This document shows, in pieces, positions 5,307 through 6,284 of a DNA stretch of 64,000 nt (positions are counted from its first letter, which is position 1; each line of letters starts with the position of its first letter). Under the pieces are notes generated by a model that saw nothing but the letters and a program-made list of their open reading frames with translations, had not been told where the DNA came from and ran no database searches. The position numbers and the translations under genes are program-made. This DNA comes from a bacterium (lineage in GTDB: Bacteria; Patescibacteriota; Microgenomatia; Woykebacterales; RBG-16-39-9b): NCBI GenBank assembly GCA_030704665.1, contig JAUYID010000009.1, positions 160,454 to 224,453 of the forward strand. The letters run 5' to 3'.

Positions 5307-6284
5307 ATGACTGCTAATGGAATGGAGAGGGAGATGTCGCAACTTAAGGCTGCAGTGATTTTCGATGGTCAGTCCAATGCCGAGGTGGATCAGATCGAAC
5401 AAGCCTTGGAATGTCCGGCTGTACGCAGTCGGTTCCGAGAGGCTTCGAGCTTCGGGGTTGATCTGGCAGGGTTGTTTCGCACCGCTCCGCCTGAGGTTCT
5501 GAACAGCCCGGCCGCCCATGTCCTCCATTTTGCGGTGGCGGTTGGTCTCTTTGACGAACTTCGTGCCCGTGAAGTGGTTCCCTCAGTTGTCAGTGGTGCG
5601 AGTCTTGGGCAGCTGAGTGCTCTGACCGCGGCCGGGGTGCTGAGGTTTGAAAGGGCGCTTGAAATCGTCAAGAGGCGTTCTGCAATCATCGCCTCAGCGA
5701 CCCGAGATTTCAAAGGCTTGACCATTCAGGTTCGTGGTAGCAACCCTGATTTGCTTGAAAGGGTCACTCCTTTTCTGACCTCTCGGGTCAGCGTGGCTAT
5801 CATCAACAGCAGCACGAGCCTGAACCTGACCGGCCCGAAGGAAGAAGTTGAAGAAGTGGAGACTGCTCTCAAGCAGTTAGCTGGCGTCAAGGTCTTCCGC
5901 CTTCCCTTTGCGGTCATCTCTCACTCACCTTTGCTCAAGGCGTATGAGAGTGGGATGACTCTCATTCTGGCGATTCGCAATCGAGATGCGGAGAATGCAG
6001 TTTTCCATTCAGTTCAGATCCCAGTGATCTCAGATCTGGACGGTGATCTCTTCTCACGTTTCGGGGGTCCCTTCAGGAAGATCCTCAAGAAGCAGCTTTC
6101 GAGCACCATCAATTGGCCGGCGGTGGTGCAGCGTCTTCGAAGTTTCGAGCCGACTTACGTTGTCAATGTCGGCCTGAACCCCTATCTCTGGCGCGACACA
6201 GCCAAAGAGTGGCCTGAGATCAGTGTTCTCAAGGTCTCAGACATGGCTAGCGTTGAGGCTGTCGTCAGGGCGTTGCGGAGTTAA
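5307..6284 (+). CDS. FabD-like acyltransferase (malonyl-CoA:ACP transacylase family). Visibly GC-rich relative to its neighbours.
   Basis: Colinear with FabD. VIFDGQSN aligns with FPGQGSQ. Nucleophile-elbow GASLGQLSAL aligns with GHSLGEYSAL (Ser kept, His to Ala). ISHSPLL aligns with the SHC/AFHS His motif. Start chosen at ATG 5307; an alternative is ATG 5334 after GGAGAGGGAG. The track start at 5265 overlaps the terminator. Confidence 0.6.
   Translation: MTANGMEREMSQLKAAVIFDGQSNAEVDQIEQALECPAVRSRFREASSFGVDLAGLFRTAPPEVLNSPAAHVLHFAVAVGLFDELRAREVVPSVVSGASLGQLSALTAAGVLRFERALEIVKRRSAIIASATRDFKGLTIQVRGSNPDLLERVTPFLTSRVSVAIINSSTSLNLTGPKEEVEEVETALKQLAGVKVFRLPFAVISHSPLLKAYESGMTLILAIRNRDAENAVFHSVQIPVISDLDGDLFSRFGGPFRKILKKQLSSTINWPAVVQRLRSFEPTYVVNVGLNPYLWRDTAKEWPEISVLKVSDMASVEAVVRALRS

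Follow-up and report, generated by a model that had tools for sequence, protein, structure and literature searches.

The stretch of DNA analysed here (hereafter the window) comprises 64,000 nucleotides of contig JAUYID010000009.1 from assembly GCA_030704665.1. Its host belongs to a small Woykebacteria-related clade of the candidate phyla radiation (CPR), or Patescibacteria, and has a tiny genome of 938 kb. Downstream of the ribosomal RNA (rRNA) operon, the forward strand of the window encodes a FabD-like acyltransferase of 316 amino acids (5334-6284). This gene is probably genuine and vertically maintained, neither an artefact nor fresh cargo, and in its product a remodelled active site probably surrounds a functional catalytic core within a complete fold. 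An earlier note on the same DNA had described an acyltransferase gene rich in G+C (GC) and embedded between two leader-bearing toxin genes, and had offered three readings of it: horizontally acquired cargo, a degenerate enzyme reused for example as an immunity or decoy protein, or an assembly chimera.

A conserved site after the rRNA operon

P0017, the nearest homolog of the window protein, is found together with near-identical variants on six contigs, each from a different assembly; Rifle aquifer scaffolds account for two of them. On the longest of these sister contigs (L002) the genes for 16S rRNA, tRNA-Ile, tRNA-Ala, 23S rRNA and 5S rRNA are followed by the FabD-like gene, two minus-strand genes (p217 and p142), S1 and ClpC. 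The five further sister assemblies show the same order. Read from the 5S rRNA gene, the window has a hairpin element (T1), gene 1, a second hairpin (T2), the FabD-like gene, a third hairpin (T3), gene 3, three minus-strand genes (p236, p145 and a FolC-like gene), S1 and ClpC; the sister order is thus the window order minus gene 1, gene 3 and the FolC-like gene. The intergenic DNA of L002 holds no trace of gene 1 or gene 3. Identity between the two lineages amounts to 89.8% for the 23S rRNA, 78.7% for ClpC, 77.6% for S1, 63% for p236, 61% for p145 and 45% for the FabD-like protein. Under the simplest history of these gene orders, the FabD-like gene, and possibly p236 as well, would have occupied the site behind the rRNA operon before the two lineages diverged.

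A scan of GTDB genomes with p145 returned 13 loci, among which partial synteny was found only in a more distant member of the Woykebacteria (L007, ClpC 71% identical); the same scan of JGI metagenomes returned two distant short contigs only. In L007 the 23S rRNA gene is followed at some distance by p145, FolC, S1 and ClpC, and an unrelated membrane protein occupies the position equivalent to that of the FabD-like gene, which is absent there. The FolC-like gene is shared by the window and L007 and missing from L002; the locus has therefore also lost genes.

It is hardly credible that the gene is a GC-rich foreign fragment joined to a CPR contig during assembly or binning. Such a chimera would account for the abrupt step in GC at the gene borders, which matches the extent of the FabD-like gene plus its 3′ hairpin, and the repeats on both sides could mislead an assembler. 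However, the Logan assembly of SRR13727534, made with a different pipeline, contains a 10,925-bp contig (L001) that is 100% identical to window positions 4108-15032 and spans both junctions. The adjacency of 5S rRNA, FabD-like gene and p236 recurs in the six sister assemblies, which come from different samples, and the element upstream of the gene is conserved between the lineages. The suspicion of an assembly chimera is thus refuted at both junctions.

The FabD-like gene would form a unit of its own after the rRNA operon, composed of a T-rich element, a TATAAT hexamer, a strong Shine-Dalgarno sequence, the open reading frame (ORF) and a 3′ hairpin. Its start is likely the ATG at 5334, because the Shine-Dalgarno sequence GGAGAGGGAG (5324-5333, + strand) directly precedes it and the N-terminus of the ortholog matches; the annotation begins at the ATG at 5307 and gives 325 amino acids. 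TATAAT (5279-5284, + strand) is a putative -10 box, read from the sequence, and is also found in L002 downstream of a conserved T-run. No canonical -35 hexamer accompanies the TATAAT at 5279, and a consensus scan requiring both hexamers made no call. After the stop codon, the gene has its own stem-loop (6288-6331, + strand; fold -27.9 kcal/mol, z -3.6), with a counterpart after the stop of the ortholog in L002 (7011-7045; -27.2 kcal/mol, z -5.75).

The repeats that had been taken for a cassette terminator are real. The 16-mer GTGGGTTTTTTCTTTG occurs exactly three times in the 64 kb, at 4219, 5252 and 6373 within a 2.2-kb stretch, and none of 100 shuffles reached three copies. Each copy lies in a hairpin element. 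T1 (4201-4234, + strand; repeat family D19) is a terminator-like arrangement of A-tract, hairpin and U-tract after the 5S rRNA gene (fold -21.5 kcal/mol, z -6.05), and a homologous hairpin also stands 3′ of the 5S rRNA gene in L002. T2 (5234-5267, + strand) is a second hairpin and U-tract, 94% identical to T1. T3 (6362-6388, + strand) is a third and weaker copy (-11.2 kcal/mol, z -1.6) at the start of the 5′ module of gene 3. The ortholog, too, is preceded by the right arm and T-run of T2, and a 15-mer of T2 lies 83-97 nucleotides upstream of the FabD-like start in all six sister contigs (L002, L003 and L023-L026). T2 is probably ancestral to the FabD-like unit and not a cassette boundary, because its right arm and T-run, followed by TATAAT, are kept in both lineages. 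T3 is assigned to the 5′ module of gene 3, since the FabD-like gene has its own 3′ hairpin. The three copies therefore stand as observed; the idea that a cassette terminator brackets the gene probably does not. Each inserted leader gene (1 and 3) may instead have brought or duplicated one copy of the hairpin and U-tract. A permissive Rfam search of 4150-6500 returned terminator-like noise only.

Base composition and codon usage

The FabD-like gene has a GC content of 0.551 and a third-position GC (GC3) of 0.603, against means of 0.448 and 0.437 for 37 other ORFs (z about 2.75) in a window with an overall GC of 0.45. At fourfold-degenerate sites its GC (GC4) is 0.589 against a pooled value of 0.418 for 36 other genes (binomial p = 4.4e-6, robust z 3.5), and it ranks second of 37 both in GC4 and in deviation of codon usage. 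The earlier observation that the gene is richer in GC than its flanking genes is thereby confirmed. The ortholog in L002 is similar, with a GC of 0.544 and a GC3 of 0.597 beside neighbours whose GC3 is 0.41-0.47.

The codon choice of both orthologs is shifted in the same direction. For Phe, the fraction of TTC is 0.62 in the window gene and 0.75 in the ortholog, against backgrounds of 0.32 in the window and 0.31 in L002. The corresponding values for Ile ATC are 0.75 and 0.67 against 0.36 and 0.37, those for Arg AGG are 0.25 and 0.42 against 0.11 and 0.09, and those for Gly GGG are 0.38 and 0.47 against 0.19 and 0.22. The window protein also contains more Arg than Lys, the opposite of the host pattern. 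At residues that are identical between the two FabD-like proteins, fourfold sites agree at a frequency of 0.342, against 0.276 expected; for comparison, the values are 34% against 27% for ClpC and 32% against 29% for S1. The GC-rich codon bias thus appears to be old, maintained and specific to this gene, because the ortholog shares it although the synonymous sites have been randomised as in ClpC. Fourfold-site identity on a par with that of ClpC and S1 gives no hint of a later transfer. Incomplete amelioration was considered as the cause of the GC bias and judged unlikely; by our own arithmetic, near-random fourfold sites would require a donor with a GC3 of about 1.0.

These numbers bear on the reading of the gene as recent horizontal cargo from a GC-rich donor, lodged between cassette genes and not yet ameliorated, which we consider quite improbable. 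The atypical GC, GC3 and codon usage, the reversed ratio of Arg to Lys, the repeated hairpin elements on the flanks and the absence of the gene from the L007 locus all speak for it. Against it stand an ortholog at the same site in a lineage whose 23S rRNA is only 90% identical, a fourfold-site identity that does not exceed that of ClpC or S1, and an amino acid identity lower than that of the neighbours. Moreover, no mobility gene is adjacent, and no close homolog was found in other organisms across the collections searched. Run exhaustively over 1.84 billion cluster representatives, HMMER found a single relative, P0017, at 46% identity, all other matches being generic acyltransferases at about 34% or less. 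Word-indexed searches with the single protein and with a two-sequence profile returned only the protein itself, the P0017 cluster and ordinary FabDs, and pattern scans built on the ortholog pair had no match in GTDB genomes, JGI metagenomes or IMG/VR. Altogether, no homolog above 46% identity was found in the 1.84e9 representatives, 5.8e9 clustered proteins, GTDB, JGI metagenomes or IMG/VR. The search for a foreign source thus turned up no donor clade among the 1.84 billion representatives, and the nearest homolog is the syntenic ortholog itself, at 45-46%. Of the proposal of horizontal acquisition, an ancient event would be compatible with the atypical composition and the absence at L007; a recent one is disfavoured by the syntenic ortholog and the saturated synonymous sites.

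The window contains a second GC-rich patch at 17972-19711 (GC 0.55-0.58). Within it, an ORF of 459 amino acids (18332-19711) ranks first of the 37 genes both in GC4 (0.642) and in codon-usage deviation. The encoded protein shows a hydrophobic segment at the N-terminal end and a C-terminus rich in Pro and Thr; no family in Pfam or NCBIfam matches it.

Fold and active site

The homology to FabD proposed from the sequence is confirmed. The protein passes the threshold of the acyltransferase (AT) superfamily model PF00698 (Acyl_transf_1) with 43.8 bits against a cutoff of 32.7, and with phmmer its residues 5-310 align with residues 8-311 of a solved FabD, hence over the full length (E = 6e-19). 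An AlphaFold2 model built on a 14-sequence alignment has high confidence (mean predicted local distance difference test score, pLDDT, 92.4; predicted template modelling score, pTM, 0.91). In a Foldseek comparison with the PDB, the top matches of this model are the FabD structures 3k89, 6u0j and 1mla, with template modelling (TM) scores of 0.87-0.90 over about 315 columns. The two-subdomain FabD fold is present along the full length of the predicted model.

The motifs that had been read from the sequence are all found in their places, in both the sequence and the alignments. They are FDGQS (residues 10-14, with GQS at 12-14), the nucleophile elbow GASLG (residues 88-92, nucleotides 5595-5609) with Ser90 as the nucleophile, and SHS (residues 196-198, nucleotides 5919-5927) with His197, all on the + strand. 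Arg115 is encoded at 5676-5678 (+ strand), and His62 occupies, by alignment, the position of Gln63 of FabD. The alignment used to compare residues comprised the window protein, E. coli FabD and 22 further stand-alone homologs.

The catalytic residues of E. coli FabD are Gln11, Ser92, Leu93, Arg117 and His201 (PMC10054515). All five are retained in the window protein, as Gln13, Ser90, Leu91, Arg115 and His197, and likewise in P0017 and in the metagenomic protein P0140; the three proteins share 31-46% identity with one another. They also keep Asn162 and Gln250 (E. coli numbering). Ser90, Arg115 and His197 are invariant in all 14 aligned sequences.

Around this core, the same canonical positions are replaced in all three proteins, namely G12-S13-Q14, Gln63, His91, Met121, Met132, Asn160 and Gln166. 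Gln63 has become His (3/3), His91 Ala or Tyr, Met121 Ile, Met132 Thr or Ala, Asn160 Ile or Ala, and Gln166 Ser or Val. In the window protein itself, GQGSQ reads GQSNA and GHSLG reads GASLG, so that the loss of the elbow His remarked on earlier is confirmed; His62 is present, Ile stands at the Asn160 position and Ser at Gln166. The sister protein and P0140 have GYSLG at the elbow. Canonical comparison sequences keep G12, S13, Q14, Q63, H91, M121, M132, N160 and Q166 at 85% or more. The elbow residue is His in 478 of 498 AT domains aligned from the best matches. At the Gln63 position, His occurs in only six of 244 aligned domains, five of which belong to the FabD-like subfamily, the sixth not being identified. 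The active site looks as if it had been remodelled under selection rather than left to decay, because the shared and concerted replacements surround an intact dyad. The subfamily is apparently tiny and restricted to CPR, its members being the window protein, the P0017 cluster and P0140.

Relation to known enzymes and possible reaction

The window protein belongs to the FabD/AT superfamily, yet it departs from FabD proper, MdcH and the polyketide synthase (PKS) acyl hydrolases in one or more of the features that define each. With E. coli FabD (PDB 1MLA, 2G2Z and 6U0J; TIGR00128; PF00698) it shares the full-length fold, a size of about 310 amino acids, the Ser-His dyad, the oxyanion positions Gln11 and Leu93, Arg117, Asn162 and Gln250. 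It differs in that identity is 24-26%, the canonical GQGSQ, GHSLG, Gln63 and Asn160 are not kept, and the gene lies outside any fab/acp cluster in the 64-kb window and on the sister scaffold. MdcH, the epsilon subunit of malonate decarboxylase (TIGR03131), gives the best-scoring curated model, matched over the full length, and is a stand-alone malonyl-CoA:acyl carrier protein (ACP) transacylase that acts outside fatty acid synthesis. However, the score lies below its cutoff and neither lineage has MdcA, MdcC, MdcD or MdcE genes nearby.

The acyl hydrolases PksD and PedC (PDB 8AVZ) of trans-AT PKS systems also have a FabD-like fold and a Ser-His dyad, and GASLG matches their elbow, G(A/S/V)SL. 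Loss of the malonyl-binding Arg, usually to Gln or His, is the diagnostic feature of such hydrolases (PMC11775670); in contrast, the window protein, P0017 and P0140 keep this Arg. Neither the window nor the sister scaffold contains ketosynthase (KS) or PKS genes, and the match to PksD is weak (E = 4e-6). The window protein thus joins a hydrolase-like elbow to a transferase-like Arg, and by analogy the elbow suggests a shift from protected transfer toward hydrolysis.

A closer analogy comes from an engineered enzyme. In a malonyl-specific AT, the change from GHSxG to GASxG left formation of the acyl-enzyme and loading of ACP intact and raised hydrolysis of malonyl-CoA 7.7-fold; a conserved Asn in the small subdomain was proposed as the pairing partner of the elbow His (PMC4186864). 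The mutant resembles the window protein in carrying the same substitution with the Arg retained. It differs in being a single engineered change in a PKS domain, whereas in the window protein Asn160 and GSQ are gone as well and His stands at 63, and because of these additional changes the net effect may differ. From these data we would predict that the window protein retains transfer and shows raised hydrolysis.

A reaction can be proposed along these lines. The core would consist of the Ser90-His197 dyad, the oxyanion positions Gln13 and Leu91, and Arg115, which would bind the carboxylate of the substrate. A carboxylated, malonyl-type acyl thioester would be bound via Arg115, and an acyl-O-Ser90 intermediate would form. 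The acyl group would then be passed to a carrier thiol, or hydrolysed more readily than by canonical FabD because the protective elbow His is missing. Docking to ACP is possible but not assured, judging from the residues at the presumed interface.

The protein might instead be an ordinary housekeeping FabD that loads malonyl onto ACP, with the rest of the pathway elsewhere in the 938-kb genome and the odd residues due to drift, which we regard as unlikely. The complete fold of the model, the five catalytic residues, basic residues at the equivalents of R190 and R287, and a published H-to-A mutant that still transacylates (PMC4186864) are all as expected of such an enzyme. A few lipid-related genes including acpP have, moreover, been reported as gained by horizontal gene transfer in Patescibacteria (PMC12455944). 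On the other side, the score is far under the cutoff of the fabD equivalog, residues conserved at 85% or more have been replaced in concert, and divergence has gone much faster in this gene than in the neighbouring ones (45% identity as opposed to 78%). L007 lacks the gene at the corresponding locus, and neither the 64-kb window nor the 12-kb sister scaffold contains a fab, acp or pls gene. CPR bacteria have generally been reported to be without fatty acid synthesis (PMC11608272; PMC12455944). A tblastn search of the window with AcpP, a metagenomic ACP, FabH, FabG, FabF, PlsX and AcpS gave a best E of 0.5, and Pfam scans of 33 other long ORFs recovered no such partner; the fatty acid or polyketide pathway partners sought after the earlier note were thus not found in the 64 kb. 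Genuine fabD genes recovered by the same searches (for example P0166) lie in plsX-fabH-fabD-fabG-acpP-fabF clusters.

Genes 1 and 3

The two neighbours that had been called leader-bearing toxin genes do share a 5′ module. Gene 1 (4255-5184, + strand; 309 amino acids) lies between T1 and T2, and gene 3 (6413-8359, + strand; 648 amino acids) follows T3. Each is preceded by a terminator-like hairpin with U-tract, a Shine-Dalgarno sequence, the 18-mer TAAACTTTATTTATGGAC and a leader (4201-4326 and 6362-6484). The module of gene 1 from the Shine-Dalgarno sequence to the end of the leader (4236-4326, + strand; repeat family D2) is 74% identical to that of gene 3 (6394-6484). The 18-mer spans the ATG and occurs exactly twice, in these two genes, and the leader, of about 25 residues, begins MD(P/S)ETG(E/G)(V/I)PK. 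No promoter-like site is present between hairpin and start codon in either gene.

The shared module and leader are real, then; the toxin assignment is not established. Gene 1 reaches only a sub-threshold score for DUF3990 (19.4 bits against a cutoff of 32.2), a family that probably belongs to the ADP-ribosyltransferase clan. Its AlphaFold2 model is of low confidence (pLDDT 50.6) and too poor for a fold search, and it has no sequence match in the PDB. Gene 3 is without a recognisable family and matched nothing in the searches made. The locus as a whole gave no PADLOC matches and no meaningful PHROG match, and neither gene has relatives among viral contigs.

The only homolog of gene 1 (P0169) is 69% identical over the C-terminal 250 amino acids and has an unrelated N-terminus. 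It lies on a contig of the Logan assembly of SRR22388055 (L019, 1-3753), downstream of a gene in which a Fic motif (HPFVDGNGRTSR) was recognised by eye and upstream of an RHH/HigB-like pair and a bAvd (23S_rRNA_IVP) gene; no FabD-like gene is nearby. This suggests that the C-terminal domain of gene 1 is modular and mobile. Genes 1 and 3 would most simply be later insertions in the window lineage, with their loss from the sister lineage as the formal alternative. Cargo lodged between toxin genes is then most simply the reverse of what happened: the FabD-like gene would be the conserved resident, and its flanks look like the newcomers.

It is very unlikely that the FabD-like gene now encodes a decayed enzyme serving these putative toxins as an immunity protein, decoy or binding partner. 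Its position directly downstream of gene 1, the loss of the elbow His and several conserved residues, and its fast evolution would fit such a role. The four substitutions, within about 30 nucleotides, that separate the sister variants (L002 6151-6182 vs L023-L026) are moreover all non-synonymous (4/4), a number too small for interpretation. However, the sister keeps the FabD-like gene with neither gene 1 nor gene 3, and P0169 occurs with no adjoining FabD-like gene. At 45% identity, the two orthologs still share nucleophile, general base, oxyanion positions and Arg. Nor is the gene arranged like an operon with gene 1, as an upstream element and a 3′ hairpin of its own set it apart. No PADLOC match points to a defence system, and the status of the neighbours as toxins is itself unproven. 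The catalytic residues kept in both orthologs and the composition of the sister locus thus do not support the idea of a degenerate decoy or immunity protein.

A similarly tight cluster of four changes is seen in the sister S1 gene (8607-8637). Both clusters may be small patches of recombination or assembly variation.

Other features of the window and related loci

The window begins with tRNA-Ile, tRNA-Ala, 23S rRNA and 5S rRNA genes (within 1-4197). The 23S rRNA (999-3916, + strand) and 5S rRNA (4081-4197, + strand) are matched by Rfam at the gathering threshold, and the end of the rRNA operon precedes the locus in both lineages. The 23S rRNA gene of the window is uninterrupted. In L007, the 23S rRNA gene (12053-16044) matches that of the window in three separated blocks, suggesting insertions or introns, and the 3′ region of the 16S rRNA gene in the sister contains a group I intron (Rfam RF00028, 58.7 bits; L002 292-515).

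Downstream of gene 3, p236 (8356-9066, - strand; 236 amino acids) and p145 (9176-9613, - strand; 145 amino acids) are conserved lineage-specific neighbours, with counterparts in L002 at 7079-7732 and 7776-8204, respectively. A FolC/Mur-ligase-like gene (9650-10990, - strand) lies between p145 and S1. The named relatives nearest to p145 are from Candidatus Woykebacteria and other Patescibacteria. It belongs to no Pfam family, is conserved in many Patescibacteria (Woykebacteria, Saccharibacteria and Microgenomates), and has a tandem duplicate in L007. Among the metagenome-assembled genomes that carry it (p145 loci L006-L018), L006, L014, L015 and L017 are titled 'uncultured Gammaproteobacteria' or 'Pseudomonadales' and are probably mislabelled bins.

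Proteins of the window are recorded as MDP2671034-41, with locus tags Q8P13_. Pfam scans took in 33 other long ORFs and left out two giant ones. The scanned ORFs encode mostly housekeeping proteins (RadA, Rho, Obg, ATP synthase, LeuRS and ComEC), the remainder being surface, signalling and unassigned proteins. The giant ORFs encode 2370 amino acids (28674-35786, - strand), with a 211-nucleotide direct repeat at 35272 and 35524 that is 73% identical, and 1645 amino acids (48867-53804, - strand).

Discussion

Several observations weigh against the reading of the FabD-like gene as a maintained resident with a working, remodelled active site. The GC excess is weaker in L002 (GC4 0.571 against 0.473, p = 0.007), where one of four neighbours equals the gene. 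The two curated models that would give the protein a specific identity both score below cutoff (fabD equivalog TIGR00128, 89.5 bits against 260.9; mdcH TIGR03131, 101 bits against 297.9). Neither the 64-kb window nor the sister scaffold of 12 kb was found to contain a gene for ACP, KS, ketoreductase, PlsX or AcpS. Basic residues with a role at the ACP interface of E. coli FabD (bioRxiv 10.1101/2020.05.15.098798) are kept only in part, R190 and R287 being replaced by Lys, K189 by Val, K279 by Pro and K286 by Ala. The elbow residue of the sister is Tyr, so that the analogy with the H-to-A mutant is direct for the window protein only. The polarity assigned to genes 1 and 3 rests on parsimony and on the unrelated context of gene 1, not on an outgroup that bears the FabD-like gene. 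Finally, the non-synonymous changes among sister variants are too few for interpretation.

A more far-reaching proposal, which we hold to be possible but doubtful, goes beyond the maintained resident gene. It would see in these proteins an undescribed subfamily of the FabD fold that has exchanged the His91-Asn160 pair and the GSQ loop for a His at position 63 and acts as a natural malonyl-thioester hydrolase or 'leaky' transferase. The gene would have stayed next to the rRNA operon, its GC-rich codons actively maintained in opposition to the mutational bias of the genome, since before two lineages with 23S rRNA 90% identical split. A CPR bacterium devoid of its own fatty acid synthesis might use such an enzyme on malonyl-CoA or malonyl-ACP that is taken from its host or present in it.

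What is new is a tiny subfamily with a distinctive active-site signature, a fixed site beside the rRNA operon and a codon bias that appears to be maintained. The overall significance is modest, as the enzyme family is already well known. The locus also offers a lesson of method: a repeat-flanked and GC-rich gene looked foreign or chimeric, and a single sister locus showed it to be a stable element. For enzymology, the subfamily is a natural experiment in which the elbow His and its probable Asn partner have been replaced together and a His has appeared at position 63, with the dyad and Arg kept. It bears on how acyl-enzymes are shielded from water and may be of interest for the engineering of polyketide and fatty acid synthases. 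For the biology of CPR bacteria, which are regarded as lacking fatty acid synthesis and relying on lipids of their hosts, a conserved and apparently active enzyme of the FabD type would be a clue to an unrecognised acyl-handling step or to the remnant of a pathway.

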